Position numbers and translations under genes: made by a program. Shown one piece after another: positions 21,515 to 37,879 of a DNA stretch of 64,000 nt (positions within the stretch are counted from its first letter, which is position 1; each line of letters begins with the position of its first letter). The notes below the pieces were generated by a model. It saw nothing but the letters and a program-made list of their open reading frames with translations. It had not been told where the DNA came from and made no database searches. The DNA is from an uncultured Chloroflexia bacterium (GTDB lineage: Bacteria > Chloroflexota > Limnocylindria > Limnocylindrales > CSP1-4): positions 643,188 through 707,187 of the forward strand of contig CAVQRM010000001.1 in NCBI GenBank assembly GCA_963715245.1, given 5' to 3'.

Positions 21515-21515
21515 G

Positions 21516-22710: not shown

Positions 22711-24183
22711 CTACCGGGCCGCGACAGCCTCGTCGGCGACGCCCGGCAGCGTCGCAAGGCCGAACGGCGCACCCGCCTCACGCACCCGTGCGGCCATCGA
22801 CGACGCGACCGCCGGGTCCAGCCCGATGTCGCGCGGCACGGCGAGCAGCTCCTCGACCCGCAGCCGTGCCCGCCCGAACGCGTCGAGCGCCCCCGCGTCC
22901 GCCCAGGCCCGACGAGAGTTGCGGTCGATCACCTTCGACGGCAGGAACTGCTCGGTGCGGAACAGCCGGCGCGTGTCCTCGAGCTCGAGGAACCGGCCCT
23001 CCGGCCCCGCCTGCTCGAAGAACCCCGTCGCCAGCGTCTCGGTCGGCGTCCCGATCCCGCGGAGCAGCCGCTGGACCATGCCGATCATGTCCGCGTCGAT
23101 CACGAGCTTCTCGGGCGACTGGGCGAGGAGGAAGTCGAGCATCCCGGCCCCGCTGATCATGTCGATCCCGGCGAGCCCGCCGACGAGCGCGGTCATCCCG
23201 CTCTCGAGCCCGGCCTGCGCGTCGATGATCTTCGCGTCGGTCGCGCCGAGATACGCGTGGCACGGGAGCCCCAGCGACTTCCCGACGGCGGCATACCCCG
23301 AGTCGATCATCGCGGTCTCGATCGCCCCCATCGGCGTGGAGCCCGTGCGCATGTCGACGATCGTCGGCGCGCCACCCCACACGATCGGGGCGCCCGGCGC
23401 CGCGAGCTGGTGGAGCACGACGCCCGCGAGGGACTCCGCGGCGTGCTGGACGATCGACCCGACCAGCGTCACGGGCGAGGCGACGCCCGCGAGCGGCATG
23501 GAGATCAGCTCCGCCGGCACCCCGGCCCGACCGAGATCCATCACGTTGCGGCAGGCGAACTCGGACCAGGTGAGCGGCGGGGACGGGCAGACGTCGAAGA
23601 CGGCGCGCGGTCGCTCCCGGAGCGCCTCGGCACCGCCCGCGTCGAGCGCCAGCAGCTCGATCATCACCGCGGACCCGCGCGGCGTGAAGGCGCCCGTGAC
23701 CACCGGCTTGGACGAGTTGTGGAGCACGAGGAACAGGCGGTACAGGTCGCCGATCTCGGTCGGGACGTCGTGCGCGACGATCGCGGTGGAGACGGCGTCG
23801 TAGGCGGGGAGCGCGTCCGCGACCCGGGTGAGGCGGACGAGGTCCGCGGCCTCGGACTGGCGGGTGTCGAGCGTCTCCGGGTCCAGGACCGCGACGCCGG
23901 ACGAGCCCGGGTCGAAGTGGACGACGCCCTGCCCGTAGCGGACGGCCGGCGACCCGGCCCGGTCGTACAGGTTGAACGCCGCGGGTGCGGTCTCGAGCGC
24001 CCGGCGGACCATCGCCTCCGGGATCGAGACGCGCTCGCCGTCCGCCGTGGCCCCGCCCGCGACGAGGACCCGGATCGCCTCCGGCTCCTCCACCTTGATG
24101 CCGGGCGTACGGAGGAGGGCGAGCGCCTCGTCGACAATTCGGTCGATGAGCTCGCGGTCGAGGATCTCGAAGCGGGGTCGCAT
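22711..24183 (-). CDS. MttB-superfamily corrinoid-dependent methyltransferase (non-pyrrolysine; glycine betaine/quaternary amine methyltransferase MtgB-like), paralogue 1
   Basis: 490-aa uninterrupted ORF. MttB family hallmarks (…RPRFEILDRELIDRIVDEALALL…, …PLTWSEFACRNVMDLGRAGVP…GGAPTIVDMRTGS…). No in-frame TAG. Confidence 0.8.
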   Translation of the reverse strand: MRPRFEILDRELIDRIVDEALALLRTPGIKVEEPEAIRVLVAGGATADGERVSIPEAMVRRALETAPAAFNLYDRAGSPAVRYGQGVVHFDPGSSGVAVLDPETLDTRQSEAADLVRLTRVADALPAYDAVSTAIVAHDVPTEIGDLYRLFLVLHNSSKPVVTGAFTPRGSAVMIELLALDAGGAEALRERPRAVFDVCPSPPLTWSEFACRNVMDLGRAGVPAELISMPLAGVASPVTLVGSIVQHAAESLAGVVLHQLAAPGAPIVWGGAPTIVDMRTGSTPMGAIETAMIDSGYAAVGKSLGLPCHAYLGATDAKIIDAQAGLESGMTALVGGLAGIDMISGAGMLDFLLAQSPEKLVIDADMIGMVQRLLRGIGTPTETLATGFFEQAGPEGRFLELEDTRRLFRTEQFLPSKVIDRNSRRAWADAGALDAFGRARLRVEELLAVPRDIGLDPAVASSMAARVREAGAPFGLATLPGVADEAVAAR

Positions 24184-24262
24184 GGCGGGTGGTCCCTCCA
24201 GGGAGGCTGGCGAGGGTGGTGGCCGGTCGGTCGATGGGGGGGCGTGACGCAGGGGCTGGACC

Positions 24263-25744
24263 TCAGCCGACGCCGACGGGCGACGAGCCGGCGCCGCGGG
24301 CGTGGGCCTCGACGATCCGAGTGAGCTCGCGGTCGAGGGCCGGGTCGAGCGGCTCGGGCCGGTGGTCGCGGAGCAGCGTCCGTGCCCGCTCCAGCGCCTC
24401 GCGATGGGGCTTGTCGGGATCCGCCTCGTACTGGCTCCAGGGTCGCCGGTCGAGGTACTTCGGCTGCCACAGCTCGCGCATGTGCCGCCGGGTGTGCTCG
24501 GCCGTGAGGTAGTCGCCGCCGGGGCCCACCTCGGCGATCGCCTCGAGGGCGAGCGACTCCGCGTCGACCGGGATCCCGCGGAGCATCGTCTTCACGATCC
24601 CGTCGATCTCCGTGTCGAGGATGAGCTGCTCGTACGACCAGATCCGGCTCCCGTGGATGAGCCCGGCGCCCAGCAGCATGTCCGCGCCGGATGCCGAGGC
24701 CATGAACGACGACAGGCCGTTCTCGAGGCCTGCCTGCCAGTCGGATGCATGCGCGCCGGTCGCGTACGCGCCCATCGAGAGCGGGACGTGGTAGAAGTCG
24801 GACAGCTGGTTGGTGGCCGCGCCGAACAGGAAGTCCTCGGGCCCGCCGCCGGTGTAGGCGCCGGACCGGAGATCCATCGCCGTCTGGGCGGCCGCGTAGT
24901 AGACCGGGGCGCCCGGGAACGCGAGCTGGAGCATCGCGAGCGCCGCGATGACCTCCGCGTTGCCGACGACGAGCGAGCCCGCGATCGTCGCGGGTCCCGA
25001 GAACGCGCACGACGCCATGGTCATGAACCCGACCGGGACGCCGGCCTCGGCGGCCACGAGCGCCGCGTCCAGCGCCCCGCCGTCGTGGGCGAGCGGGCTG
25101 ATCGTGCACTGCATGAGCGACAGCACCGGCCGCTCCCGCAGCGCGGCCCGGCCACCGGCGATCGCCGCGGCCATCTCGATCGCGGCCTCGGTCTCCCCGG
25201 GCGTGACGATGCTCTCGGTCTGGACGTGCTTGGTGGAGTTGCGCCAGACCGCGGACACCTCCTCGAGCGCGCGCGTCTCGGGCGGGACGTCCTGCGCCGA
25301 CACGGCGACCCAGTGGAACGCGATCGCGTCGAGCGCGTCCGCGACGCGGGCGATGTCCGCGACGTCCTGGAGCGCGGACCGGCGGACGGTCAGCGTCCAC
25401 GGATCGAGGACCTCGATCCCGCAGCCGTCGGTGGCGAGGTGGACGTGCGCCCCATCCAGGGCGAGGTCGCGCGCAGGGTCGCGCGCCGCGAGCGTGTACG
25501 CGGGCGGCGCGGACGTCAGGGCACGCTCGATGAGGTCGCCGGGGGCGCGCACGACGGACGTCGAGCGATCGACGGTCGCGCCGGCCGCCTCCCAGATGTC
25601 CAGAGCGCGGGGCGACGGGAAGCGCACGCCGACGCGCTCGATGATCTCGAGCGTGGCCTCGTGGACGCGGGCGATCGCGGCGGGGGACAGGATCTCGAGC
25701 ACGGGTCGGGCGGACCGGTCCTGCTCGTCTGCGGTGGTGTGCAT
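24263..25744 (-). CDS. MttB-superfamily methyltransferase, paralogue 2
   Basis: Starts at MHTTADEQ… inside ORF 24263..25897. Collinear with paralogue 1 (…EILSPAAIARVHEATLEIIERVG…). Intact. Confidence 0.8.
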   Translation of the reverse strand: MHTTADEQDRSARPVLEILSPAAIARVHEATLEIIERVGVRFPSPRALDIWEAAGATVDRSTSVVRAPGDLIERALTSAPPAYTLAARDPARDLALDGAHVHLATDGCGIEVLDPWTLTVRRSALQDVADIARVADALDAIAFHWVAVSAQDVPPETRALEEVSAVWRNSTKHVQTESIVTPGETEAAIEMAAAIAGGRAALRERPVLSLMQCTISPLAHDGGALDAALVAAEAGVPVGFMTMASCAFSGPATIAGSLVVGNAEVIAALAMLQLAFPGAPVYYAAAQTAMDLRSGAYTGGGPEDFLFGAATNQLSDFYHVPLSMGAYATGAHASDWQAGLENGLSSFMASASGADMLLGAGLIHGSRIWSYEQLILDTEIDGIVKTMLRGIPVDAESLALEAIAEVGPGGDYLTAEHTRRHMRELWQPKYLDRRPWSQYEADPDKPHREALERARTLLRDHRPEPLDPALDRELTRIVEAHARGAGSSPVGVG

Positions 25745-25791
25745 CGATACCTCGGTGGCGGGACGCCGTGGAGGAGGGTGGACGAGGCTCG

Positions 25792-26460
25792 TCAGCCCGC
25801 CGCCATCGCCTCGGGAACGCCAAGCAGCTGGCGGGCGAGCGCGACCGCGCCGATGGCGTCCTCGCTGTACCCGTCGGCGCCGATCTCCGATGCCCACTGC
25901 GAGCTCGCCGGCGCCCCGCCGACGATCACCTTGACCCTGGGTCGGAGCCCGGCGGCCTCGAACGCCTCGACGACCGTCCGCTGCCCGGACATCGTCGTGG
26001 TGAGCAGGGCCGACACCCCGACGAGGTCCGCGTTGTGCTCGCGGGCCGCCTCGACGAACTGCTCAGGGGCGACGTTGACCCCGAGGTCGTGGACCTCGAA
26101 CCCGGACGTCTGGAGCATCATCCCGACGAGGTTCTTGCCGATCTCGTGGATGTCGCCCTTCACGGTCCCGAGGACGACGCGGCCGACGACCTGCCGGGTC
26201 GTCGCCTGGCGGGCCATCTCGGGCTCGAGCACCGAGATCGCCTTCTGCATCGCGCGGGCCGCGAGCATCATGTCCGGCAGGTACAGCTCGCCCTGGCCGA
26301 ACTGCTCGCCGACGTACGACAGCCCGGGGACGAACCCCTGGTCGATCGCGTCGAGCGGCGCGACGCCCGCGGCCAGTGCCTGCTCCGCCAGGCTTGCCGA
26401 CGCCGTCGCATCGCCGTCGATGACGCTCTGCCGCATCGCCGCGAACAGGTTCTCGCTCAT
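25792..26460 (-). CDS. cobalamin-binding corrinoid protein (MtgC/MtmC-like: B12-binding cap + Rossmann domain)
   Basis: DxHxxG motif (DIHEIGKNLV), …VGVSALLTTTM…, …VKVIVGGAP…. Confidence 0.85.
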   Translation of the reverse strand: MSENLFAAMRQSVIDGDATASASLAEQALAAGVAPLDAIDQGFVPGLSYVGEQFGQGELYLPDMMLAARAMQKAISVLEPEMARQATTRQVVGRVVLGTVKGDIHEIGKNLVGMMLQTSGFEVHDLGVNVAPEQFVEAAREHNADLVGVSALLTTTMSGQRTVVEAFEAAGLRPRVKVIVGGAPASSQWASEIGADGYSEDAIGAVALARQLLGVPEAMAAG

Positions 26461-26496
26461 GAGTGCTCCTTCGTCTGGGGTCCGTGGACCGGGGGG

Positions 26497-27940
26497 TCAG
26501 GGGATCGGTGTCGACTGCGGCCTCGCGGCCGCCCGTTGGAGGATCGCGTCGAGCTCGCGCACGACGGCGTCGGGGAGGCCCGGCGGCTCGTGCGCGGCGA
26601 GGAGCTCGTCCACGCGCGCGGCCGCTCGTTCGCCCATCGTCCGTCCGCCGCGCGCCTGCCAGGCGCTGAACGACAGGCGGTCGATGAGCGTTGGGTACCA
26701 GCGCTCGCGGTAGTGCCCCAGCGTGTGGTCCGTCTCGAGGAACGACCCGTCGGGGCCCAGCTCGTCGATGAGGTCGAGGGCGAGCGTCTCGGCGCTGATC
26801 TCGACGGGGGCGATCGCCGCGCGGATCCAGGCCGCGATCTCGTCGCAGATGACGAGCTGGGCGAGCGATCCGGTCAGCCCGGACTCGAGGTAGCCCGAGT
26901 CGTGGATGAGGTGGCCGCCCGCGAGCGCGTCCACGAGCATCGTCAGCGCGGCGTCCGTCGCGGCCTGCTGGTCGACGGTCTTGGAGTCCGAGCCGCCGGC
27001 GAGGCTGAACATCGGCAGGCCGTAGTGGTGGGCGAGCGACGGGACCACGCCCCGGTGATCGGGCTCCGCGTAGGGATCGACCATCGTCCGCAGGTCCAGC
27101 GCGTCGCCGCCGAAGCCCGGGATCACGACGGGCGTTCCCTCCCGGACGAGCTGGGCCAGCACGATGCCCACGAGCACGCCCGCGTTGTTGAGCGTGACGT
27201 TGCCGGCCATCGTGACCGGGCCCGTCGTGCCGCCCGAGGTGACCGGGATCCAGAGGGCCGGCAGGCCGCGCTCGGCGAGGACGAGCAGCTTGCGCAGCGA
27301 GTCGCCGTTGTGGACGAGGCCCCGGGTGACGTTGATGTAGAACGCCACGTTCGGGCGGGCGGCGAGCGCCGCGGCGCCGCCGGCGACGGCCTCCGCCATC
27401 TCGATCACGTCGAGCATCGCCGCCACGTCGTAGGTGACGATGACGAGCGGCTTTGTCGTCCGCTCGAGCATGATCGCCGCCTGGTGACGGTCGGCGAGCA
27501 TCGGGTCGACGTCGGCCGGCAGGAACATCGACATCCCGAAGTCCATGTTCGGCAGCGCGTCGACGAGCGAGAGGCCGTCGCGCACGTCGGCGAGCCGCGC
27601 CTGGCGCCGCTCGCCGGACCGGTGGTCGATCACGTTGAGGCAGTCCGAGCCCGGGCCGAAGAAGACGTTGTCGCCCTCGACAGCGAGCGCGGGCCGGCCA
27701 CCGCGGTCGAACAGCCCGACGGACCGGGGCGCGGCCGCGAGCGCCCAGTCGACGAGTGAGGCCGGGCACGTGGACGCGCCCGTCGTCGGTCACGCGGGCA
27801 CCGGCGCCGTGGAGCCGTTCGACCGCCTCCGCGTCGTGGAGGACGACGCCCGTCCGCTCGAGGATCGTGCAGCTCGCCTCGTGGAGCAGGGCACAGTCGT
27901 CCGGCGTCAGCCGGTCGTAGCGCGGCGAACGAGCGGTGCG
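26497..27940 (-). CDS. MttB-superfamily methyltransferase, paralogue 3; apparent frameshift ~27775
   Basis: ORF 26497..27633 aligns to residues ~115-490 of paralogue 1. The N-terminal ~100 aa (…SPRYDRLTPDDCALLHEASCTILERTGVVLHDAEAVERLHGAGARVTDDGRVHVPGL…) lie in another minus-strand frame. The bridging segment (…LVDWALAAAPRSVGLFDRGGRPALAVEGDNVFFGPGSDCLNV…) is in the first frame upstream of a stop. Exact start uncertain. Confidence 0.65.
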
Positions 27941-28099
27941 AGCGTCCGGAGTGCGCGAAACCAGGGACGCCTCCTTGATGCGGGCCGTTGACCCCCAATC
28001 TCCGGCGTCCGGCGGCGGCCCGGATAGGGCGGAAGGTCCCGGCGGAAGGGTCCGACGGACCATCCGGTCGCCGATGCCCGTGCGCGGAGACTGGATCCG

Positions 28100-29791
28100 A
28101 TGCCCGACGTCGTCCACGGGACCGAGCGTCGACCGCTCGTGTCCGGTCGTCTCCTGTTCGACGAGGCCGCCGAGCTCTCGGTGGTCGTCCCCGCCTCCTG
28201 CAAGCGCACCGGCCGCTGCCGTGAGTGCGTCGTGGAGGTGCGCGCCGGGGCGGACCAGCTGTCGCCGCCCACCGCCGCCGAGGCGTTCCTCCGGCCGGGG
28301 TTCCGCCTCGCGTGCCAGGCGAGCGTCGAGCGGACGGAGCACGACGTCGAGTTCGGCATCCTCCGCCGCCGGCTCCGGATCCAGCTCGCCCCGGAGCTCC
28401 AGGGACCGGTCCCGCATCTCGACGCCGGGGTACGGGTCGAGGATGGCCGGTACGCGGCCGAGCCGGTCCCGTGGGCCGGGCCGGCGTCGCGAGGCCTCGC
28501 CGATTCGGATCCGGAGCTCGCGACGCCGACGCCCGCGGATCTCGGCCCCTCGTACGGCCCGCCCGTCGGTCTCGCCCTCGACGTGGGCACGACGACGGTC
28601 GTCCTCGAGCTCGTCGACCTCGACCGGGGGACGGTGCTCGCGGTCGCGGCGTTCGAGAACCCGCAGCGGTTCGGCGGCTCGGATGTCATGACCCGCATCT
28701 CGTACGAGGACGACCAGCCGGGTCTCCTCCGCCAGGCGCTCCGGCGCGCGGTCAACCACGAGCTTGGCCGGCTCCAGTCGGAGCTCTGGATCGACCGGCG
28801 CCGGATCGTCGAGGCCGTCGTCGTCGGCAACCCGACGATGCGCGACCTCGCGTTCGGCCTCGACGTGCGGCCGATCGGCCGGATCCCGTACCGCTCGGTG
28901 ACCGAGACCGCGCTGCGCGAGGGATCCGACGCGGTCGACGGTCGTCGAGCGCCGGGCCCACGAGCTGGGCCTGCTGATCAACCCCCAGGCCCGCGTCATC
29001 GGCGGCCCGATCGTCGCCAGCCACGTCGGGGCGGACGCGGCGGCGGATCTCGTGGCCGTGGACGCCGTGGAGCGCGGCGGGTCGTTCCTGCTCGTCGACA
29101 TCGGGACCAACAGGGAGATCGTCGTCTCGGACGGCAGGCGGGTGCTCGCGGCGTCCAGCCCGGCCGGCCCCGCGTTCGAGGGCGGCGGGGTGCGCTACGG
29201 GATGCCCGGCGCGGACGGGGCGATCGAGACGGTGCGGCTCGACGCCGGCGCTCGCCGGTTCGACGTTCGCGTCATCGGCGACGGCGAGCCCGAGGGGATC
29301 TGCGGATCCGGGCTGGTGGACCTGCTCGCGGAGCTCCGCCGGGCGGACTGGCTCACGGCCCGCGGCGGGTTCGAGCCCCGGGCGACGAGATCCCCATCGT
29401 CGATGAGCCGCGGATCACGCTCTCGCGCGGCGACGTCGGCCACCTGTCGATCGCGAAGGCGGCCACGGCCGTCGGCCAGCGCGTGCTGCTGCGGAGGCTC
29501 GGCCTCGCGCCGTCGGACCTCGACCGCGTCTACCTCGCCGGCGGCTTCGCGAACGCGATCGACGTGCGCTCGGCCATCGACATCGGGCTGCTCGCGCCGG
29601 TGGCCCCGGAGCGCGTCATCCGGGCGGGCAACGCGTCCATCGCGGGCGCACGGGCGCTGCTGCTCTCCCGTCGTCGGCTGGCCGCGCTCGACGCGCTCAC
29701 CCGGCACATCGAGCACGTCGAGCTCGAGTCCGAGCCCGACTTCTTCGACCTGTTCACCGACGGCTGCCTGTTCGAGCCGATCGTCGTCTGA
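28100..29791 (+). CDS. RACo/RamA-type ATP-dependent corrinoid reductive activase (N-terminal 2Fe-2S ferredoxin domain + DUF4445 ASKHA ATPase); two apparent frameshifts (~28925, ~29385)
   Basis: …CKRTGRCRECVVEV… ferredoxin Cys cluster. Middle part (…TVVERRAHELGLLINPQARVIGGPIVASHVGADAAADLVAVDAVERGGSFLLVDIGTNREIVV…) is in the frame of ORF 29052..30083. C-terminus (…LAGGFANAIDVRSAIDIGLLAPV…IAGARALLLS…) is back in the first frame. Confidence 0.7.
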   Translation: MPDVVHGTERRPLVSGRLLFDEAAELSVVVPASCKRTGRCRECVVEVRAGADQLSPPTAAEAFLRPGFRLACQASVERTEHDVEFGILRRRLRIQLAPELQGPVPHLDAGVRVEDGRYAAEPVPWAGPASRGLADSDPELATPTPADLGPSYGPPVGLALDVGTTTVVLELVDLDRGTVLAVAAFENPQRFGGSDVMTRISYEDDQPGLLRQALRRAVNHELGRLQSELWIDRRRIVEAVVVGNPTMRDLAFGLDVRPIGRIPYRSVTETALREGSDAVDGRRAPGPRAGPADQPPGPRHRRPDRRQPRRGGRGGGSRGRGRRGARRVVPARRHRDQQGDRRLGRQAGARGVQPGRPRVRGRRGALRDARRGRGDRDGAARRRRSPVRRSRHRRRRARGDLRIRAGGPARGAPPGGLAHGPRRVRAPGDEIPIVDEPRITLSRGDVGHLSIAKAATAVGQRVLLRRLGLAPSDLDRVYLAGGFANAIDVRSAIDIGLLAPVAPERVIRAGNASIAGARALLLSRRRLAALDALTRHIEHVELESEPDFFDLFTDGCLFEPIVV

Positions 29792-29805
29792 GGACCGCCA
29801 CCACG

Positions 29806-31468
29806 ATGCCGACCCCGACCCGGGCGACGACGCCCGCCGCCACCGACGCGACGACGCCCGCTGCCACCGACGACCCGATGCCCGGTCCGGGCGCGCTCCG
29901 CCGATCCCTCGCGACGCCCGGTGCCTTCGCCACCGTCGTGGAGCTCGTGCCGTGGGCCGGCGAGCTCTCCGACACCCGCGGCCAGAAGCCGCTGCGGATG
30001 GCGTCGGACCTCGCGGGCGACCCGCGGATCACCGCGCTCTCGGTCACCGACAACGCCGGCGGCCACGCGCGCCTGAGCCCTGACACGCCCGGGGAGGCGC
30101 TCCAGGCGCTCGGCCACGACGTCGTCGTCCACGTGGCGGCGCGGGACCGGAACCGGAACGGGCTCCAGAGCCTTGGCTGGGACCTGCTGTCTCGCGGCCT
30201 CACGACGGTCCTCGCCATCAGCGGCGACTACCCGGTCGACGGCTTCGAGGGGCTTGCGAAGCCGGTGTTCGACCTCGACTCGGTCGCGCTGCTCGCGCTC
30301 CTCCGCGAGCTCGGCGCGGCGGCCGCGGAACGGGCGGCGTCGGATGGGGCGCCGGACTCCCCGAGCCGTGACTTCCTCCTGGGCTGCGCCGTGGACCCGT
30401 TCAAGCGCCTCGAGCGGGACCTCGTGCCGCAGCTGCTCAAGCTCGCCCTCAAGACGCGGACCGGCGCGGACTTCGTCATCACGCAGGTCGGCTACGACGC
30501 CCGCAAGCAGGACGAGCTGCTGCGCTGGATGCGCGGCGAGGGGATCGAGCGGCCGGTGGTCGCGAACGCGTACATCCTCTCCGCCGGCGTCGCGCGGGCC
30601 TTCCACGCGGGCCGGGTGCCGGGTTGCGTGGTCACGGACGAGCTGCTCGCGCTCGCCGAGCGGCAGGCCTCATCGCCGGACAAGGGGCGGGCGTTCTTCC
30701 TCGAGCTCGCGGCGAAGCAGGCGATCGTCGCGCGGGGCATGGGGTTCGCGGGCGTCTATCTCTCGGGCCACCGGGACGCCGACGAGGTTCGCCGCGTCGG
30801 CGAGCTCGTTGACGCCCACGGCGACGCCGACTGGCGGCCGCTCGTGCGCGACGTGTCATTCGGGCAGCCGGGGGCCTTCCACCTGTTCGCGCCCGACGGC
30901 GCCGGGCTCTCCACCGACGAGCCCTCGCGGGCCTATCGTGCGTCGCTGGCGCCGGGCGCCCGATCGCGTGCCCGCGCCCGGGTGTCTCCGTTCTACCGGG
31001 TCAACCGCGTCGCCCACGAGCGCGTGTTCGAGCCCGGGACCCCGGGCTTCCGGGCCTGGGCCCGGGTCTACGGCGCGGTCGAGCGCGCTGCACGTCGAAC
31101 GGCCGCTCCACGTCCTCGAGCAGGCGGTCAAGGTGCCGCTGTACGACTGCCGGGACTGCGGCGACTGCTCGCTCCCCGACATCGCCTACCTGTGCCCCGA
31201 GAGCCACTGCGCGAAGAACCAGCGCAACGGGCCGTGCGGCGGCGCGCGCGACGGCCGCTGCGAGACCGGCGACCGTCCGTGCATCTGGGCCGAGGCCTAC
31301 CGGCGGCTCAAGCCCTACGGGGAGGAGCTGGCGATGCTCGACCGGCCGCCCGTGATCCAGGACAACCGCCTGCGGCGCACGAGCGCCTGGGCCAACACGT
31401 TCCTCGAACGAGACCACCACGCCGTGCGCCGCGCCGCCGGCACCACCCCGAAAGGATCCGATTCGTGA
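29806..31468 (+). CDS. methylenetetrahydrofolate reductase-like protein: MetF-type TIM barrel followed by an MTHFR C-terminal zinc-ribbon (MetV-like) domain; apparent frameshift ~31090 at the domain junction
   Basis: MetF-like …FATVVELVPW…LSVTDNAGGHARLS…VVVHVAARDRNR…FVITQVGYDA… in frame 1. Cys-rich …LHVERPLHVLEQAVKVPLYDCRDCGDCSLPDIAYLCPESHCAKNQRNGPCGGARDGRCE… in ORF 30173..31468. Confidence 0.65.
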
Positions 31469-32519
31469 GGCCCGACCGCACCGGCACCCCGTTCCTCGTC
31501 GTCGGCGAGAACATCCACGCGACCCGCGTCGTCAAGCGGGCCGGCCGCCTGGCCGCGGAGCTGGAGGACGGCACCGTCGGGATCGCGTTCGAGGATGCGC
31601 ACGGCGAACGCCGGATCCTGCCCGTGCACCCCGACCTCGTGACGGGGCGAGACTTCGCGGCAGGCAAGATCAAGCACGTCGCGAGCGCGATCCGCTGGGG
31701 CCTGGACGGGGACCGGCACGCCGAGCTCGCGGCGGCGTACATCCGCTCGATGGCGGCGCGGCAGGAGGCGGCGGGCGCGGACTGGCTTGACCTCAACGCG
31801 GACGAGGTCGCGCCGGCGTCCGAGGTCCGGGCGGCCGCGATGGCCTGGCTCGTCGGGGTCGTCGAGGCGACGCGCATCGGTTCCCGTCTCGATCGACTCG
31901 TCGGACGTCGGCGGTGCTCGCGGCCGGCGTGGCGGCGTCGACCCAGCCCAGAGGCCCGCTCCTCCTGAACTCGGCGTCCCTGGAGCGGCCGGAGGTCCTG
32001 GACCTGGCTGCCGATACGGGCTGTGCGGTCGTCCTGGCCGCGAGCGGGCTGGGCGGGATGCCGGCGAACGCCGAGGAGCGCGTCACGAACGCGATCTCCA
32101 TCGCGGAGCAGGCGATGGCCCGCGGGATCGAGGGCGGGCTGCTGTACGTGGACCCGCTCGTGCTGCCCGTCGCCGTCGAGCCGGACGCGCCGGCCCACGT
32201 GCTCGAGGCGGCTCGCCGGCTCCGCGCCGAGTACGGCGACGCGATCCACCTCACGGGCGGGCTGTCGAACGTGTCCTTCGGGATGCCGGAGCGCAGGCTG
32301 CTCAACGACGTGTTCATCGACCTCGCGGCCGAGGCCGGGATCGACAGCGGGATCATCGACCCGGTGGCATCCGACCTCACGCGGGTGTTCACGGCCGATC
32401 GCGACACCGACGCCTACCGGCTGGCCGCGGACCTGCTCGAGGGGCGTGACCCGTTTGGCGGCGAGTACGTGACCGCCTTCCGGGCGGGCAGGCTCGCGGA
32501 GGTGGCGGTCGCCGGCTGA
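31465..32519 (+). CDS. pterin-binding methyltetrahydrofolate:corrinoid methyltransferase (MtgA/MtrH/AcsE-like); two closely spaced apparent frameshifts (~31878 and ~31915)
   Basis: GTG start overlapping the MetV stop (…PFLVVGENIHATRVVK…). The pterin-binding …VPVSIDSSDVG… motif is in a second frame. C-terminal 200 aa (…LYVDPLVLPVAVEPDAPAHVLEAARRLRAEYGDAIHLTGGLSNVSFGMPERRLLNDVFIDLAAEAGIDSGIIDP…) is in ORF 31914..32519. Confidence 0.65.
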
Positions 32520-32528
32520 CACGTGGAG

Positions 32529-32564
32529 CCCGCCCGCGGGATGCCGCCCGCCCGCGGGATGCCG
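32529..32564. repeat. perfect tandem duplication of an 18-nt unit CCCGCCCGCGGGATGCCG
   Basis: Read directly. Immediately after the stop of the MtgA-like gene. Confidence 0.6.
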
Positions 32565-32740
32565 CCCGGGTATTACTCCCCATGCTATCTGGCCGCAGAA
32601 CCTGGCCGGGAGGCGCGGCCACGGCCCAATGTCGCCATCGCTATTACCCGGGATGATGTCCCTGCCCTTCCGGCGGCTCTCGGGCACCGCGGGAGGGCCG
32701 CGGCCACCGGAGCACGTCGGACTTGACGTCGGATAGCACC

Positions 32741-32815
32741 ACCCGTGATCCGGCGGGCGCCAGGCAGCTGGCGGCCAACCCGTGATCCGGCGGGCGCCAG
32801 GCATCCGGCGGGCGC
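32741..32815. repeat. two 26-nt direct repeats ACCCGTGATCCGGCGGGCGCCAGGCA (11-nt spacer) plus a third partial copy
   Basis: Read directly in the 355-nt convergent intergenic region 32520..32873. That region also contains unusually AT-rich patches (TATTACTCCCCATGCTATCT; CGCTATTACCCGGGATGATG). Confidence 0.6.
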
Positions 32816-32873
32816 GAGCCTTGGGGCGGGGCCGGAGCACCCGCGACCCGAGGTGCGAAAGACCCTGCCGCGA

Positions 32874-33623
32874 TCAGTCGCCCGCCGGGACCGCCTTGAC
32901 GACCCCGTCGTCGTAGCTCATCGCGAGCCGCTCGCCGGGCTGGAGCACGAGCATGTCGTCGCCCCAGTCGCCGTCGAGCAGGCGGCGGAGCAGGACGAGG
33001 CTGCCCTCGACGGTCTCGAACGCCCAGCCACGGCGCCCAGCCTGCGCGCGTGCAATCGACGCCGGCCCATCCTCGCCGGCGACGCCCATCGCGATGAACG
33101 CCGCCCGTCCGTAGTGGGCCCGCCAGGCGCCCATGACCTCCATGAGGTAGTCCGCGTTGTCCTCGCCGTACTTCGCGACGTACTCGGCGCGCACGACCTC
33201 GAGGCCGTCGTCGGTGTCACCGCCGACACCGCTCCCCGCGGGCCCGTCGCGTGTCCCGTCCGCGCGCTCCAGCTGGTCCGCCACGTACCAGTAGGTGGCC
33301 GGCATATCGCGTGTCTCGGCGTCGTACCGCTCCCGCGCACCGAGGAACAGCGTGATGCAGTCGTGGGCGCGGGGGAGGACGACGGGCACATGCCGGGCCT
33401 CGATTCCCGCGGTCGCGCCGCCGCACAGGCCGTATCCCAGGACGACCGCCTCGGCCGTGGGCGGCGCGTCGTCGATCGCCGCCTGGAGCCGGGTCCGCAG
33501 ATCCCGCGGGTCGTTGTGGAGCCCGCGGCGGAACAGCGTGACGTCCACGACGTGCGGCGATCGGGCGGCGCACAGGTAGATCGGACGCGCCATCACGTCG
33601 CAGGCGATCGCATGGATCCGCAT
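32874..33623 (-). CDS. DUF1638-domain protein (family recurrently linked to corrinoid methyltransferase loci)
   Basis: MRIHAIACDVMARPIYLCAARSPHVVDVTLFRRGLHN…GYGLCGGATAGIEARHVPVVLPRAHDCITLFLG… Start at internal Met of ORF 32874..33686. Confidence 0.55.
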   Translation of the reverse strand: MRIHAIACDVMARPIYLCAARSPHVVDVTLFRRGLHNDPRDLRTRLQAAIDDAPPTAEAVVLGYGLCGGATAGIEARHVPVVLPRAHDCITLFLGARERYDAETRDMPATYWYVADQLERADGTRDGPAGSGVGGDTDDGLEVVRAEYVAKYGEDNADYLMEVMGAWRAHYGRAAFIAMGVAGEDGPASIARAQAGRRGWAFETVEGSLVLLRRLLDGDWGDDMLVLQPGERLAMSYDDGVVKAVPAGD

Positions 33624-33727
33624 CCCGAGATCGTAGCGCCGCCTCCGGCCGGTTGGCCCCTGTCGCCCGGGCCGCACATGTGGCACCGTGGACGCAGACC
33701 CGCGATGGCCGGGCGGGAGGAAGATCG

Positions 33728-34198
33728 ATGGTTGAACAAGACGCAGGCGCCGGAGCCCAGGGCCCCTCGACCCGCTGGGTCCGGCTCGAACGCAGCCTCG
33801 ACGCGTCGGCAGAGCGCGCGTTCCGCGCGTGGTCCGATCCGGAGGAGCTCGCCCGCTGGCTCCCGGAGCGGATCGAGGGCGCGCTGGCCGCCGGGACGCG
33901 CAACGTCCTCCTGTGGTCCAGCTCCCGCACCTGGTGGGAGGTGCAGGAGGTCCACCCCGACGACACCTTCGTCTTCCGGCGGCCAGCCACGCCCGACGGG
34001 GCGCTGGTGACGACCGTCCGGGTCGGCGTCCGCTCGATCGGCTACGGCTGTCGCGTGGAGCTCGAGGACGGACCGTTCCAGGTCGACACCCCGGCGGGGC
34101 TGGAGGCCTGGGCGGCAGCGATCCGCACGTGGGCGGAGACGCTGACGATGCTCAGGGCCTACCTGGACTTCAGCGTCGACGTCCGGCGGCGGCCGTAG
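33728..34198 (+). CDS. SRPBCC (AHSA1/START-like) domain protein
   Basis: ~155 aa. …RAFRAWSDPEELARWLPE… is typical of Activator-of-Hsp90-ATPase-like/polyketide cyclase fold proteins. Confidence 0.45.
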   Translation: MVEQDAGAGAQGPSTRWVRLERSLDASAERAFRAWSDPEELARWLPERIEGALAAGTRNVLLWSSSRTWWEVQEVHPDDTFVFRRPATPDGALVTTVRVGVRSIGYGCRVELEDGPFQVDTPAGLEAWAAAIRTWAETLTMLRAYLDFSVDVRRRP

Positions 34199-34211
34199 GC
34201 GAGGCGGCGGC

Positions 34212-34566
34212 GATGGACGCCCGGCTGGTCGCGTTCGGCCTCATCGAGGTCGAAGGGCACCGATACCCGCACGACGTCGTCATCGAGCGGGGTGTGGTCC
34301 GCAAGCGCCGCAAGAAGCCCTCGCGTCCGCACCGTGACCGCTACGGCCACACGCCGTTGTCCGTCGCCGAGGCGATCCCCTGGCACCGCGGCCGGCTCGT
34401 GGTGGGGACCGGCGAGGCGGGCATGCTGCCGGTCATGCCCGAGGTCCTCCGCGAGGCCCGAAGACGAGGCGTCGAGCTCGTCACCGTCCCGACCGAGGAG
34501 GCCTGCCACCTGCTCCGCGAGGTTCCGGCCGAGCGCGTGAACGCCATCCTCCACGTGACCTGCTGA
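34212..34566 (+). CDS. Mth938-like (DUF498) domain protein
   Basis: ~118 aa: …LVVGTGEAGMLPVMPEVLREARRRGVELVTVPTEEACHLL…. Confidence 0.4.
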
Positions 34567-34638
34567 GCCCGCCCGACTCGGGCGGTGGACGGGCAGCTCG
34601 ACTCGCCCCGCCAGCCCCGCCGCCCGGACGGCGTCGCG

Positions 34639-35271
34639 CTACGCGCCGGTGAGCGCCTGCCTCGCGACCTCGACGGCGGTCGCGGCATCGGGCGCGTAGC
34701 CGTCCGCGCCGATCTCCGCCGCCCACTCCGCGGTGACCGGCGCGCCGCCCACGAGGATCCGGACGTCAGCCAGCCCCGCGCCGCGCACGGCGGCGACGAC
34801 GTCCCGCATCCCGGTCATCGTCGTCGTGAGCAGCGCGCTGATCCCGACGAGCCTCGCGTCGTGCTCCTGGATCGCCGCGACGAACCGCTCCGGGGCCACG
34901 TTCGTGCCGAGGTCGATCACCTCGAAGTTCGCGCCCTTCCACATCATCGCGACGAGGTTCTTGCCGATGTCGTGTAGATCGCCGCTGATCGTGCCGATGA
35001 CCGCCCGATGCTCCGGACGAATGCCCGCGCCCACGAGCACGGGCTCGAGGATCAGCATCGCCTCCTTCATCGCCCGGGCACTGATGAGCATCTCGGGGAC
35101 GTAGATCTCGTTGCGCTGGAACCGCCCGCCGATGACGTCCATCGCACCGGTCATCGCGGCGAGGATCGCGTGCGGATCCACCCCCTCGTCGCAGGCAGCC
35201 TGCGTGATCGCCTTCGCTGTGGTCCGGTCGCCCGCTTCGACCGCGGCGGCGAGCGCGGCAAGATCGGCCAT
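34639..35271 (-). CDS. cobalamin-binding corrinoid protein, second copy
   Basis: DLHDIGKNLV (DxHxxG), …VGISALLTTTM…, …VRILVGGAP… Collinear with 25792..26460. Confidence 0.85.
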   Translation of the reverse strand: MADLAALAAAVEAGDRTTAKAITQAACDEGVDPHAILAAMTGAMDVIGGRFQRNEIYVPEMLISARAMKEAMLILEPVLVGAGIRPEHRAVIGTISGDLHDIGKNLVAMMWKGANFEVIDLGTNVAPERFVAAIQEHDARLVGISALLTTTMTGMRDVVAAVRGAGLADVRILVGGAPVTAEWAAEIGADGYAPDAATAVEVARQALTGA

Positions 35272-35284
35272 GGAACGCTCCTCC

Positions 35285-35857
35285 TCAGCCCCGCAGGGGA
35301 TAGGTGCCGTACGCCTCGACGGCGTCGACCATCGCGAGGACGTTTTCGGGCGGGACGTCGCCCATCACGGTGTGCACGGCGCCCAGCATGTACCCGCCCC
35401 CGGGCCCGAGTGCCTCGATCACGCGCTTCACCTCCGCGCGCACCTCGTCGGGGGCCTCGATCTCCTCGAGCGTGTATGCATCCGCGAGCGGGTGGATGCC
35501 CGGGAACCAGTCGTCGGGGCCCTGGTAGATGTGGCCGGCGCCCCAGTCGTCGATCATCGGGGAGCGGGGCTCACGGGCCATGTTGCGGTCGCGGACATGG
35601 GCGGGGAAGTGGTCCAGCACTCCCCTGACGTCCGCGTGGAGTCGCTCGTAGGTCGCCTCGTCCAACTTGGCGGTCCCAAGTTCCGGCCACTCGTAGATGT
35701 ACTCGTCCGGCGCGTCGACGCCGATGAGCTGCTTGACACCGCGGTACGTGACCATCTTGATCCCGGTCGCGTTCGATGGTCCGAGGACGATCGGCACCCG
35801 GTCGGGCTGGTCATGGGCGAACGTCGCGAGGACCCGCTCGCGCGGCGTCATGGGCAT
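35285..35857 (-). CDS. uroporphyrinogen-decarboxylase-like (MtaA/MtbA-type methylcobamide methyltransferase family) protein lacking the central ~150 aa; likely internally deleted remnant
   Basis: N-terminal …RERVLATFAHDQPDRVPIV…SNATGIKMV… and C-terminal …GGGYMLGAVHTVMGDVPPENVLAMVDAVEAYGTY… match the ends of URO-D/MtaA proteins (~340 aa). The uninterrupted ORF is only 190 aa. Confidence 0.5.
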   Translation of the reverse strand: MPMTPRERVLATFAHDQPDRVPIVLGPSNATGIKMVTYRGVKQLIGVDAPDEYIYEWPELGTAKLDEATYERLHADVRGVLDHFPAHVRDRNMAREPRSPMIDDWGAGHIYQGPDDWFPGIHPLADAYTLEEIEAPDEVRAEVKRVIEALGPGGGYMLGAVHTVMGDVPPENVLAMVDAVEAYGTYPLRG

Positions 35858-36098: not shown

Positions 36099-36503
36099 AT
36101 GGCAGGCAGCGGCACTCGCGAGGACCCGTGGCAGCTGACCACGGCCAACGGCGGCTCGGCATACCAGATGTGGCGGGACGAGGCGGCGGATCCACCCGTG
36201 CTCGTGTGCATGGTCGGGAGCACGAAGCTCAGCTACCACCTGCGCGCGATCGAGGACCTCCACGCGTGGCTGCAGGCGCAGGGCGACTGGGTGCCGCTCG
36301 GCGGCGCCGATGAGCAGAAGGCGGCTCCCGACGGGTCGGTCGAGGCCTGGGGCCGTTCCGAGGGCAACCCGGTCGGAGGCTGGTACGGCACCCGGAAGGG
36401 GTACCGGGGCCGGTTTGGCGTCTACCTCCCGCCGCTGCTCGAGGCGCTGGGGCTCGTCGAGCTCGAACACAACCCGAAGAACAACCGAGTGCGGGCGCGC
36501 TGA
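36099..36503 (+). CDS. hypothetical protein (~134 aa)
   Basis: ATG preceded by GGGGAGG. High GC3. No family recognised. Confidence 0.45.
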   Translation: MAGSGTREDPWQLTTANGGSAYQMWRDEAADPPVLVCMVGSTKLSYHLRAIEDLHAWLQAQGDWVPLGGADEQKAAPDGSVEAWGRSEGNPVGGWYGTRKGYRGRFGVYLPPLLEALGLVELEHNPKNNRVRAR

Positions 36504-36596
36504 GCGGCGCCGCCGGGAGCGGCCCGGGCGGTCTCCGCGGGCGATCAGGCACGGCTCTCAGGCATCCCGAAGCCGGGCAGGGCATCCTTAGCCGCG

Positions 36597-37745: not shown

Positions 37746-37879
37746 CGGCCCGCGTCGACTTCGGCGCGGACGACCCGGTCGCACGCGTCGGCCGCTTCAC
37801 GCCGCGCTCCGGCGATTACGATCGCAGGTGCAAGCGGGATTGCATGGTCCAGGCAATACCGTGGCGGTGGAGGTGCCGG

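Follow-up and report, generated by a model that had tools for sequence, protein, structure and literature searches.

A conserved two-operon gene cluster in soil Limnocylindria (Chloroflexota) that probably channels methyl groups through corrinoid proteins to tetrahydrofolate

Gene content and proposed function

The window analysed here, a 64-kb stretch of DNA, contains at 22.7-35.9 kb a cluster of three non-pyrrolysine MttB-family genes, two corrinoid proteins, a RACo/RamA activase, an MTHFR-MetV fusion, a pterin-binding methyltransferase, a DUF1638 protein and a shortened URO-D-family gene. In our view this is quite probably a vertically inherited, two-operon catabolic cluster, through which methyl groups from methylated small molecules would pass to a protein-bound corrinoid and from there to tetrahydrofolate (THF). 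The gene set includes all parts of a methyl-donor:THF corrinoid system, namely three substrate methyltransferases (MT1), a corrinoid protein, a pterin-binding second methyltransferase (MT2), MetF-MetV and an activase. About 45 species-level Chloroflexota MAGs share the order MttB1-MttB2-CoP1-[MttB3]-RACo-MTHFRfus-Pterin-DUF1638, with amino-acid identities of 65-90%, which speaks for purifying selection on a unit that works. All ten members listed in an earlier sequence-only reading were found, at the positions given there or within about 25 bp of them, and every family assigned in it was recovered in Pfam profile searches. NCBIfam equivalog cut-offs were all missed, and assignments within the cluster are therefore at family level only.

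The flow direction, partnerships and substrates proposed below follow from homology to MtgBCA/RamA of Desulfitobacterium and MtgBCD/MetF2/RamA/DUF1638 of Ruegeria. Each of the three MttB-family MT1 proteins, which are about 30% identical, would bind its own methyl donor and methylate Co(I) on CoP1. MT2 would then move the methyl group from CH3-Co(III)-CoP1 to THF, and the MetF-MetV fusion would oxidise CH3-THF to CH2-THF for entry into C1 oxidation or assimilation. Corrinoid inadvertently oxidised to Co(II) would be returned to Co(I) by the [2Fe-2S]/ASKHA RACo together with DUF1638, at the cost of ATP and a low-potential electron. A second branch on the common MT2/MetF/RACo backbone would appear to have CoP2 as its carrier and the URO-D-family gene as its MT1, the latter internally deleted here. 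As a whole, the cluster probably demethylates methylated nitrogen compounds, with folate receiving the methyl groups.

A divergent intergenic region (27965..28099) separates a minus-strand MT1/CoP operon from a plus-strand RACo-MetF-MT2 operon. From the gene layout it is presumed to be the shared promoter region of both operons; no Rfam family, such as a cobalamin riboswitch, was detected within it.

The MttB paralogues and their pockets

MttB1 (22711..24183, minus strand, 490 aa; PF06253 E 2.3e-86) and MttB2 (24263..25744, minus strand, 493 aa; PF06253 E 2.7e-90) are both intact MttB-superfamily methyltransferases and are about 32% identical to each other. Orthologues of both occur in 46 related loci, those of MttB1 at the same position and with 75-90% identity. 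Against PDB sequences MttB1 matches MttB (7xcl, 6e-62) and MtgB (9yce, 2e-56), scoring slightly better against the pyrrolysine enzyme 7XCL (213 bits) than against MtgB (195 bits), while MttB2 matches MtgB (2qne/9yce) at 5e-69. MttB3 (26497..27964, minus strand, 488 aa after frame correction; PF06253 E 3.5e-72 over 26500-27789) has orthologues in 26 loci, about half of the relatives. Its N-terminal 71 aa were located by tblastn with intact orthologues in another frame, at 27964-27764. The gene and family previously proposed at 26497-27940 stand, with the true start near 27964.

The possibility that these were pyrrolysine-type MttB enzymes was checked, and all three proved to be non-pyrrolysine: the position of Pyl334 is occupied by Ala, Ala and Gly in MttB1-3, and no in-frame TAG is present. 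They share their superfamily with the pyrrolysine MttB of Methanosarcina barkeri (PDB 7XCL) but differ from it in having no UAG/Pyl codon and in a methyl acceptor pathway that would lead to THF rather than to CoM.

The three-component logic of Desulfitobacterium hafniense (MtgB/MtgC/MtgA plus RamA, glycine betaine:THF; 2QNE/9YCE; PMC13080624) is shared, with an MttB-family TIM barrel related to MtgB at E 1e-45 to 5e-69 and the same corrinoid protein and MT2 families. The differences lie in the activase here, with its N-terminal [2Fe-2S] domain and DUF1638 partner, in a MetF-MetV gene within the cluster and in the substrate pocket. The MtgB glycine-betaine tetrad Y97/R312/H348/F356 is kept by none of the three paralogues, being replaced by S/H/S/L in MttB1, G/S/L/S in MttB2 and S/F/H/G in MttB3. 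These pockets are invariant across 43 (MttB1, including the Ala at the Pyl site), 42 (MttB2) and 25 (MttB3) aligned orthologues. In the pocket alignment R312 is missing from all three, whereas it is conserved in MtgB, MtcB, MtpB, MthB and MtyB (PMC13080624). The Eubacterium limosum enzymes MtpB, MtcB, MtyB and MthB, which retain this residue (PMC13080624), otherwise offer a parallel in the use of MttB paralogues of differing specificity on one corrinoid protein, MT2 and activase, an arrangement that is assumed for the present cluster.

The suggestion of a complete quaternary-amine:THF demethylation module akin to MtgB, MtpB, MtcB and MtyB thus stands for the methyl-donor:THF corrinoid parts, with the analogy holding at superfamily level only, and does not extend to the quaternary amine or the substrate pocket. 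With R312 missing from all three MT1 proteins, a quaternary-amine module is a statement about class and not about substrate, and even that substrate class is an extrapolation. In every characterised quaternary-amine substrate the acidic group is bound by this Arg, and as none of the three pockets has it, glycine betaine should not be taken as the default. By analogy, the substrates would be methylated small molecules, most probably N-methylated ones.

Corrinoid protein, activase and folate-linked enzymes

CoP1 (25792..26460, minus strand, 222 aa) consists of a B12-binding cap and Rossmann domain (PF02607 and PF02310), scores 218.5 bits against TIGR02370 (cut-off 215.3) and contains the motifs GDIHEIGKN, SALLTTT and VGGAP. 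It is present in every Limnocylindria-type locus and by analogy is the predicted cognate methyl carrier of the cluster. The RACo/RamA-type reductive activase (28100..29791, plus strand, 563 aa after correction; PF00111, PF17651 and PF14574 over two frames) was recovered as three colinear tblastn pieces and comprises an N-terminal [2Fe-2S] ferredoxin domain, a middle domain and an ASKHA ATPase; its orthologue matches NF040756 AcsV (3e-78) and TIGR04270 RamA (7.5e-35), both under the cut-off. The next gene (29806..31468, plus strand, 553 aa after correction; PF02219 E 3e-11 and PF12225 E 1.2e-24, in two frames) encodes an MTHFR (MetF) with a fused, Cys-rich C-terminal domain of MetV-like type (DUF5981/MTHFR_C), and its orthologue in locus L002 is a single 588-aa protein with both domains. 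Its stop is overlapped by the start of the pterin-binding methyltransferase (MT2; MtgA/MtgD/MeTr-like; 31465..32519, plus strand, 350 aa after correction), which again came from three colinear tblastn pieces, the C-terminal one giving PF00809 at E 1.2e-9. The MT2 orthologue matches NF005719, methyl-THF:corrinoid methyltransferase, at 1.4e-53. The DUF1638 protein (32874..33623, minus strand; PF07796 E 1e-31) is encoded in 40 of the 46 Limnocylindria-type loci, and RamA-like activases are known to be partnered by a DUF1638 protein in bacteria (PMC5764234).

Among the closest known systems is that of aerobic Ruegeria pomeroyi, in which MtgB, MtgC and MtgD were found by genetics and proteomics in 2025 to work with MetF2, RamA and DUF1638 alongside several PF06253 paralogues (PMC12478193). 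Its list of parts is identical to the one here: several PF06253 MT1 proteins, a stand-alone corrinoid protein, a pterin-binding MT2, a dedicated MetF paralogue adjoining MT2, a RamA-like activase with ferredoxin domain and DUF1638 (PMC12478193; PMC5764234). The parts are scattered in Ruegeria, however, whereas here they form one compact divergent cluster in a Chloroflexota host, with MetF fused to a MetV-like domain, MT1 pockets lacking the glycine-betaine residues and no homocysteine-binding MtgE nearby.

The Ruegeria system has a link to a split MetH, that of Phaeobacter inhibens (PMC12478193; PMC5764234). As in Phaeobacter, the corrinoid protein, pterin-binding protein, RACo and DUF1638 could instead form mainly a split cobalamin-dependent methionine synthase, with methyl-THF as donor and homocysteine as acceptor, and the MttB paralogues as optional additions on the same carrier, a dual use as in Ruegeria. 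MtgD has been reported active in both directions, which would suit such a role. We nevertheless regard it as unlikely: no PF02574 homocysteine-binding module was found in the scanned frames of the window or the called genes of loci L001 and L002, and three MT1 genes with a MetF paralogue at the core of the cluster are a catabolic signature.

Host and genomic setting

Best protein matches and about 50 syntenic loci belong to Chloroflexota, Candidatus Limnocylindrales MAGs, and the closest relatives are soil Limnocylindria from long-read MAG projects. On these protein matches and loci the host is assigned to an uncultured soil bacterium of the class Limnocylindria; the actinobacterial type claimed earlier for the genome had to be given up on the same grounds. 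The G+C content is 0.72-0.75 within the cluster and also in its flanks, so that "island" is apt for a functional cluster but not for a compositionally foreign one.

The gene families are those of the Desulfitobacterium, Eubacterium and Acetobacterium systems and MetF-MetV is typical of acetogens, as might be expected if the host were an anaerobic methylotroph or acetogen whose routine anaerobic system for quaternary amines supplied the Wood-Ljungdahl pathway. There is hardly any probability in this, given that the close relatives are all soil Limnocylindria MAGs, that CODH/ACS, Hdr and Rnf genes are absent from the 64-kb window and the flanks of the L001 and L002 loci, and that a RACo with N-terminal [2Fe-2S] domain and DUF1638 partner is the arrangement of aerobic Alphaproteobacteria (PMC5764234).

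The aerobic-type neighbours pointed out previously are real: profile searches of the window recovered the leucine-degradation genes and, also in the neighbourhood, a tyrosine phenol-lyase (TPL) above the TIGR02618 equivalog cut-off (742.6 against 720.7 bits). Surprise at finding them there is dated, in view of aerobic Ruegeria (PMC12478193) and of mttB-type genes having already been listed as common in Limnocylindria MAGs in 2024 (PMC11264602). Neither a transporter of betaine type nor a demethylase for dimethylglycine or sarcosine is present in the window, which leaves the pathway context incomplete.

A more specific proposal would have the three MttB proteins act in succession on one N-trimethylated amino acid such as tyrosine betaine; the neighbouring TPL would then cut the product, with TPL and an MFS transporter as conserved neighbours. 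In 19 related loci a beta-eliminating lyase (TPL) gene falls within the 10 kb upstream of the MttB genes, no other transporter and no downstream demethylases belong to the cluster, and no pocket resembles a known betaine pocket. This association is synteny only, within one order. TPL and MFS were directly observed as a pair in just the window and L002; for the HMGL-type arrangement only the window showed TPL, and L001 has an MFS gene beyond the leucine genes. Depending on the genome, TPL-MFS is separated from the MttB genes by sigma/anti-sigma genes or by a 5.5-kb leucine-catabolism cluster, which speaks against a common transcript. The MFS protein resembles DHA2 efflux pumps, and MttB3 is missing from about half of the genomes. 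To our knowledge, no MttB-family member demethylates secondary or tertiary amino acids, and the proposal is in sum very improbable.

Frame breaks, the second corrinoid protein and accessory genes

A GC3 frame plot and tblastn with intact orthologues revealed six single-base indels in four genes: two indels in RACo (about 28929 and 29384), and extra bases in MttB3 (one, at about 27762), MTHFR-MetV (one, about 31084) and MT2 (two, about 31872 and 31912). Once these are corrected, all four proteins are full length without internal stops. Similar breaks and split domains occur outside the cluster, across the window, among others in MCC-alpha, GFO/IDH/MocA oxidoreductases, a FadH-like flavoenzyme and HlyD, and for both reasons the six frameshifts are probably assembly indels.

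Were they and a 591-bp deletion in the URO-D-family gene real, this strain would have four to five pseudogenes here. Six indels in 4 of 11 cluster genes, plus the deletion, could accordingly be read as a decaying array whose pathway has been lost. This seems decidedly unlikely, for beyond each shift, downstream, the amino-acid sequences are still 78-83% identical to the orthologues, GC3 does not fall below 0.9 across any of the shifts, correction of single bases leaves no stops, breaks of the same kind run across the whole window and such errors are common in the long-read MAG projects that supplied the closest relatives.

The deletion itself is the only one of the lesions that may well be genuine. 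It is a clean, in-frame internal deletion at about 35452/35453 in the URO-D (MtaA/CmuA-like fold) family gene (35285..35857, minus strand), defined by two blastn blocks that lie about 590 bp apart in relatives. By comparison with the 387-aa L042 orthologue, the N-terminal 135 aa run directly into the C-terminal 55 aa, and 197 central residues are gone. The gene is thus shortened, as the term "remnant" had implied, yet it is no terminal stump; its product is presumably inactive, the TIM-barrel core being missing. Full-length copies occur in 20 related loci (PF01208 5.5e-25, TIGR01463 2.8e-12), and an AF2 model (pLDDT 88) has as its best PDB fold match MtaA (4ay8; E 7e-14, TM 0.65), with HemE just behind.

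CoP2 (34639..35271, minus strand, 210 aa, intact; PF02607 and PF02310), beside this gene, is 47% identical to CoP1 and has the motifs GDLHDIGKN, SALLTTT and VGGAP, so that the cofactor-binding motifs DxHxxG/SxL/GG are kept in both corrinoid proteins. The only loci with it at this position are L016 and L042 (81-82% identity). RACo-MTHFR-Pterin-CoP-DUF1638 clusters of other Chloroflexota (L056, L057, L063, L065, L067 and L069) contain copies that are 71-74% identical, and in L069 URO-D-family genes adjoin the CoP gene. By sequence, CoP2 is of the type predicted to serve a sister cluster built on URO-D-family methyltransferases in place of MttB. URO-D-fold MT1 systems (the O-demethylases MtvB/OdmB/VdmB, chloromethane CdmB/CmuA, and MtaA) resemble this pair in that the truncated gene is PF01208, its full-length orthologue folds like MtaA/HemE and in L069 such genes accompany a carrier of the CoP2 type together with MT2, MetF and RACo. 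The sequence is only 19% identical to MtaA, however, and lacks the MtaA zinc motif H-x-C...C (FHTDGD / AVHTV). In Anaerolineae, orthologues (66-70% identity) stand alone, with no corrinoid genes nearby. The gene belongs to the cluster by position, as listed before, but its membership is doubtful, as is its tie to methyl transfer, which is positional only.

Between DUF1638 and CoP2 are two plus-strand genes for small proteins absent from the earlier list, one SRPBCC/AHSA1-like (about 33728-34198; PF08327 E 1.6e-7) and one DUF498 (Mth938-like; about 34213-34566; PF04430 E 5.6e-8). The former occurs in only five related loci (L016, L033, L034, L037 and L042) and the latter in L033, L034, L035 and L042; they are variable accessory genes of uncertain cluster membership. 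Also additional to that list is a DUF6855 protein (36099..36503, plus strand; PF21619 E 2.8e-68), a conserved neighbour without evidence for a methyl-transfer role, whose gene adjoins DUF1638 or URO-D in 30 of the 46 Limnocylindria-type loci and closes the cluster in relatives.

Gene content and integrity of the cluster

The G+C content of the window is 70-76% throughout and its ORF lists are full of spurious frames, so coding frames were taken from a third-position G+C frame plot and then scanned against Pfam. All of the cluster members listed in the sequence-only reading were found in this way, and its family assignments hold. On the minus strand are MttB1 (22711-24183; PF06253, E 2e-86), MttB2 (24263-25744; PF06253, E 3e-90), the corrinoid protein CoP1 (25792-26460; B12-binding_2 and B12-binding) and MttB3 (26497 to about 27964; PF06253, E 3.5e-72). 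The plus strand then carries the activase RACo (28100-29791), with Fer2 (PF00111), RACo_middle (PF17651) and RACo_C_ter (PF14574) domains, the fused MTHFR and MTHFR_C/DUF5981 gene MetF-MetV (29806-31468; PF02219 and PF12225), and the putative second methyltransferase, Pterin_bind (31465-32519; PF00809, E 1.2e-9). DUF1638 (32874-33623), the second corrinoid protein CoP2 (34639-35271; both B12-binding domains) and a short URO-D-family ORF (35285-35857) are again on the minus strand, and the Pfam scan placed a DUF6855 gene next. Two small genes between DUF1638 and CoP2, SRPBCC/AHSA1 and DUF498, had been absent from the earlier list. NCBIfam provided an equivalog-level name for none of the cluster genes, and nothing at all for DUF1638, DUF6855, SRPBCC, DUF498 or orf414. 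Scanning the whole window for Rfam families and tRNAs gave no hit, neither a cobalamin riboswitch nor a tRNA-Pyl, and the frames scanned in the window included no betaine transporter and no dimethylglycine or sarcosine demethylase.

The reading frame is broken in four of the genes, MttB3, RACo, MetF-MetV and Pterin_bind. Intact orthologues from a related 3.6-Mb contig (L002) matched the window in tblastn as colinear pieces in different frames, and DNA alignment to six relatives located six single-base indels, five being an extra base (at about 27762, 28929, 31084, 31872 and 31912) and one a missing base (at about 29384). With single-position edits the proteins become full-length and stop-free, at 488 (MttB3), 563 (RACo), 553 (MetF-MetV) and 350 (Pterin_bind) amino acids. 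Real pseudogenisation of the cluster is unlikely, as the corrected genes are free of stops, orthologue identity (72-84%) and GC3 (at least 0.9) are held on either side of each shift, and similar breaks are found outside the cluster. The latter include one in MCC-alpha at about 20856 and domains split between frames in two GFO/IDH/MocA oxidoreductases, a ROK protein, an HlyD protein and a FadH-like flavoenzyme. The most economical reading of the cluster frameshifts is assembly indel error, and the splits across the window point to the same cause rather than to gene decay. The nearest relatives were obtained for the most part in long-read MAG projects on soil. Apparent single-base frameshifts were noted at 1.5-4.5, 9.8-10.9, 41.7-42.9, 43.4-45.2, 47.9-50.0 and 54.8-58.6 kb, and with this many frame breaks any ORF-based annotation of the contig will come out fragmented.

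Host lineage and conservation

The genome had been described as actinobacterial in type, a placement that its homologues contradict. MttB1 homologues are 80-95% identical and those with an organism name belong to Candidatus Limnocylindrales or Chloroflexota. A scan of one genome per GTDB species, with the RACo orthologue as query, gave 80 loci, and without exception the best 50 or so belong to MAGs of Chloroflexota (labelled "uncultured Chloroflexia" or "Candidatus Limnocylindrales/Limnocylindria"); the NCBI taxonomy places Limnocylindrales within Chloroflexota. At about 50% identity, RACo homologues were found in Latescibacterota, Acidobacteriota, Gemmatimonadota and Dehalococcoidia. The window is colinear with related loci at 76-79% nucleotide identity and therefore represents a further species of the Limnocylindria group. 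Neither the relatives nor the flanks support a host of the anaerobic acetogen type, and the window contains no Wood-Ljungdahl genes. Horizontal acquisition was also considered and dropped, because the G+C of the cluster is that of its flanks and synteny extends across the order; what had been called an island is better read as a gene cluster.

When 82 loci were searched with the corrected proteins of the window, the order MttB1-MttB2-CoP1-[MttB3]-RACo-MetF/MetV-Pterin_bind-DUF1638-[variable]-DUF6855-orf414 was found to be kept in about 45 species-level genomes. Almost all of the related loci have MttB1 and MttB2, and about half have MttB3. Twenty carry the URO-D gene and a handful SRPBCC and DUF498, while CoP2 was found at its cluster position only in the window and two of the loci searched (L016 and L042). 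The MttB paralogues are about 30% identical to one another against 73-90% within each orthogroup, which indicates that they are old paralogues kept by selection.

Substrate pockets of the MttB paralogues

All three MttB proteins match the PF06253 TIM-barrel profile over nearly its full length (positions about 25-494 of 500). They were compared at the residue level with Desulfitobacterium hafniense MtgB (2QNE/9YCE), the pyrrolysine MttB of Methanosarcina barkeri (7XCL) and the rhizobial-type protein 4YYC, and are about equally distant from the first two and more distant from the third. Pyrrolysine is absent. The position of M. barkeri Pyl334 is occupied by Ala in MttB1 and MttB2 and by Gly in MttB3, with no in-frame UAG, and the residue is invariant in 43, 42 and 25 orthologues, respectively. 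The trimethylamine MttB equivalog TIGR02369 (cut-off 525 bits) was missed by MttB1 (367.7 bits), MttB2 (432.6 bits) and the L002 orthologue scored in place of the window's MttB3 (333.8 bits). The three are non-pyrrolysine members of the MttB family.

Mutagenesis together with a structure containing the ligand has defined the glycine-betaine site of MtgB (Picking et al. 2026, PMC13080624). Cation-pi contacts come from Y97 and F356, and the carboxylate is bound by R312 and H348, R312 being kept also in MtcB, MtpB, MthB and MtyB (PMC13080624). We reconstructed MtgB from its HMMER alignment, the numbering of the paper being the 9YCE chain index plus 2 (in agreement at all four residues), and aligned it with the three MttB proteins of the window and 110 orthologues. 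At the positions of Y97, R312, H348 and F356, MttB1 has S, H, S and L (invariant in 43 orthologues), MttB2 has G, S, L and S (invariant in 42) and MttB3 has S, F, H and G (invariant in 25). A conserved G-[LV]-P motif anchors the R312 column and makes it robust, and phmmer aligns MttB2 in the same way. The rhizobial-type 4YYC keeps both R312 and H348. Since the four MtgB residues are not kept as a set, none of the three paralogues qualifies as an MtgB by its pocket, and the carboxylate/phosphate anchor that is common to all characterised quaternary-amine enzymes is missing from each.

The sequence-only reading had taken the genes for a quaternary-amine demethylation module. Its families and logic stand, and the substrates that it implied do not, given the absence of R312 from MttB1-3; the term "quaternary amine" is here an extrapolation from the superfamily. 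A tentative and somewhat doubtful reading is that the three conserved orthogroups without Arg312 have substrate specificities new to the MttB superfamily. On that reading they may act on methylated nitrogen compounds that carry no acidic group, or demethylate one substrate in successive steps. Lacking the substrate-binding arginine of every characterised relative, MttB1-3 are good targets in a search for new substrates of this family.

Predicted methyl carriers, activation and transfer to THF

CoP1 and CoP2 each have a B12-binding_2 cap and a B12-binding Rossmann domain, with the motifs GD[IL]H[ED]IGKN, SALLTTT and VGGAP, which correspond to the DxHxxG/SxL/GG cobalamin-binding motifs. CoP1 passes TIGR02370 (218.5 bits, cut-off 215.3) and CoP2 falls below it (157.8). 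After correction of two indels RACo is a single protein with N-terminal [2Fe-2S], middle and ASKHA ATPase domains. Its NCBIfam scores are under the cut-offs for AcsV (263.7 of 800) and RamA (120.3 of 500), and by family it is the predicted reductive activase of the corrinoid proteins. MTHFR and the Cys-rich MTHFR_C/MetV are fused in a protein of 553 aa in the corrected window and 588 aa in L002, and the stop of this gene overlaps the start of Pterin_bind. The latter is a stand-alone PF00809 TIM barrel adjoining the corrinoid system, and its orthologue scores 181.8 bits on NF005719, below the cut-off of 259.

The sequence itself establishes the parts, their intactness after correction, their conservation and the lack of pyrrolysine; from these assignments we infer the direction of flow, the partnerships and the nature of the substrates. 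By homology, an MttB-family methyltransferase would pass a methyl group from its substrate to Co(I)-CoP1, and the pterin-binding protein would move it from CoP1 to THF. MetF-MetV may then oxidise methyl-THF to methylene-THF, the direction being presumed, and RACo, together with DUF1638, would re-reduce Co(II). The split methionine synthase found in P. inhibens requires DUF1638 and a ferredoxin-DUF4445 RamA-like protein (Price et al. 2018, PMC5764234), and DUF1638 co-occurs with the RamA-like protein across Alphaproteobacteria (PMC5764234). Less probably, the present cluster may be primarily, or also, a split methionine synthase of this sort; however, there is no homocysteine module nearby, and no gene for one (PF02574) was found in the reading frames scanned in the window.

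CoP2 and the URO-D gene

The URO-D gene had been described as a remnant, and a short copy is indeed what the window holds. Aligned with relatives it forms two blocks that lie about 590 bp apart in them, and in its product residues 1-135 run in frame straight into residues 333-387 of a 387-aa protein, which 20 related loci encode at full length. It is thus an in-frame internal deletion with both ends kept; 197 central residues, and with them the TIM-barrel core, are gone. Microhomology was sought at the junction, and the CCGGACG repeat of L042 does not fit that of the window. The full-length form matches PF01208 (5.5e-25) and only weakly the MtaA/CmuA subfamily (TIGR01463 46.6 bits, cut-off 235.4), and has FHTDGD / AVHTV where MtaA has its H-x-C...C zinc Cys ligands. 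An AF2 model of it (pLDDT 88) aligns to MtaA 4AY8 with a TM of 0.65, only marginally above HemE. With the barrel incomplete in the window copy, and with a low subfamily score and no zinc motif in the full-length orthologue, the gene does not qualify as an MtaA/CmuA-type methyltransferase.

The family is large and strongly conserved, matches at 64-70% identity including proteins named Anaerolineae and Caldilineales. Orthologues at about 68% identity stand alone in a MAG named Anaerolineae (L083, 8001-9155) and a metagenome contig (L085, 8001-9161), with no corrinoid genes nearby and with a nucleoside-type ABC transporter or unrelated genes as neighbours. A role for the URO-D protein as a methylcobalamin:thiol MT2 or a substitute for methionine synthase was rejected, given the absence of zinc-thiolate ligands and these solitary orthologues.

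Carriers of the CoP2 type (71-74% identity) are found in a sister Chloroflexota cluster of the order RACo-MetF/MetV-Pterin_bind-CoP-DUF1638 (L069 10001-19017; also L056, L057, L063, L065 and L067). In L069 two URO-D-family genes are situated where MttB genes would stand, which suggests that the backbone is modular and can take MT1 proteins of different families. URO-D-fold MT1 proteins are the norm in O-demethylases and chloromethane systems, and some are zinc-free (PMC13222342). Our reading is that CoP2 and the URO-D gene may be a second MT1/carrier pair on the shared backbone, crippled in this strain; the evidence that the URO-D protein might act in methyl transfer is only positional.

Relationship to described systems

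Corrinoid-dependent demethylation was long regarded as a trait of anaerobes, and the older models for such a cluster are the anaerobic MtgBCA/RamA system and the multi-MT1 systems of Eubacterium. The closest described system is that of the aerobe Ruegeria pomeroyi, comprising MtgB/MtgC/MtgD, MetF2, RamA and DUF1638, work which carried corrinoid demethylation into aerobic marine bacteria (PMC12478193). R. pomeroyi loses its growth on glycine betaine when mtgC or mtgD is knocked out, and genomes with as many as seven PF06253 paralogues were recorded (PMC12478193). The aerobic MtgC clade lies near CmuA, distinct from the MtgC of anaerobes, and a dual role with MtgE, which binds homocysteine, was described (Mausz et al. 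2025). As in the Ruegeria system (Mausz et al. 2025), MT1, CoP, MT2, MetF, activase and DUF1638 co-occur here: all six, namely a PF06253 MT1, a CoP, a pterin MT2, an adjacent MetF, a RamA-like activase and DUF1638, lie within 11 kb in the window and are conserved in about 45 relatives. Genes of the mttB type were also common in Limnocylindria in a 2024 MAG survey (PMC11264602). The novelty that the sequence-only reading implied is therefore anticipated by these two studies, and apart from its arginine-less paralogues the cluster adds an expected case to a system already described. Specific to the present case are the compact, conserved cluster, the MetF-MetV fusion, the host lineage and the three MT1 orthogroups without the arginine.

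The same machinery, compact and conserved, is thus present in about 45 species of an uncultured soil class of Chloroflexota, and likely extends B12 demand and methylated-amine turnover to soils. If the suggestion of new specificities were true, the abundant soil Limnocylindria would take up methylated amines in oxic soils as a sink that depends on B12, and a second, URO-D-based branch served by CoP2 would be in the course of being lost in this strain.

Neighbouring genes

Upstream of the cluster on the plus strand are a tyrosine phenol-lyase gene (TPL, 13755-15281) and, directly after it, a 14-TMS-type MFS transporter with weak DHA2-efflux similarity (15282-16991). A link between this pair and the MttB genes is attractive, in that TPL exceeds the equivalog cut-off of TIGR02618 (742.6 against 720.7 bits) and 19 related loci also have the lyase gene upstream of their MttB cluster, but it amounts to synteny, which is broken by different insertions in different genomes. 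The gap between TPL and the cluster holds leucine-catabolism genes in the window and sigma/anti-sigma genes in L002. The former (17017-22460, plus) encode enoyl-CoA hydratase, methylcrotonyl-CoA carboxylase beta and alpha and HMG-CoA lyase of leucine/isovalerate degradation; they lie between TPL-MFS and the MttB genes, and are at that place in only some relatives. Further upstream (1481-4515, plus) is a ThiS-MoaE fusion followed by a protein, spread over several frames, that weakly matches the TIM barrel of D-lysine 5,6-aminomutase alpha. Some 20 kb from the cluster, this protein may be a further cobalamin-dependent enzyme.

A FadH/OYE-type Fe-S flavoenzyme (54842-57500, minus; Oxidored_FMN and Pyr_redox_2), split by frameshifts, adjoins an AraC/cupin regulator (57600-58454, plus). 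Its architecture is common to trimethylamine/dimethylamine dehydrogenases and N-methylproline demethylase. A function as an N-methyl-amino-acid demethylase was set aside, as its NCBIfam matches are only generic FadH/OYE ones and it is 20 kb away.

The cluster is followed (36099-38440, plus) by the DUF6855 gene (134 aa), a gene for a 380-410-aa protein with one N-terminal transmembrane segment, an Ala/Glu-rich body and no family match, and a DUF6812-containing ORF, all of which keep their synteny in most relatives although their identity is lower (39-61% for orf414). Just downstream of these conserved neighbours (38975-41632, plus) are an OmpR-type response regulator, a HAMP/HisKA kinase and a DM13-domain protein with a frame break. 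Beyond them a sugar/inositol-type catabolic block (41712-54866) contains several GFO/IDH/MocA oxidoreductases, a xylose-isomerase-like TIM barrel, a DeoC aldolase, a SIS protein, a ROK regulator and a Peripla_BP_4/ABC/BPD_transp_2 transporter.
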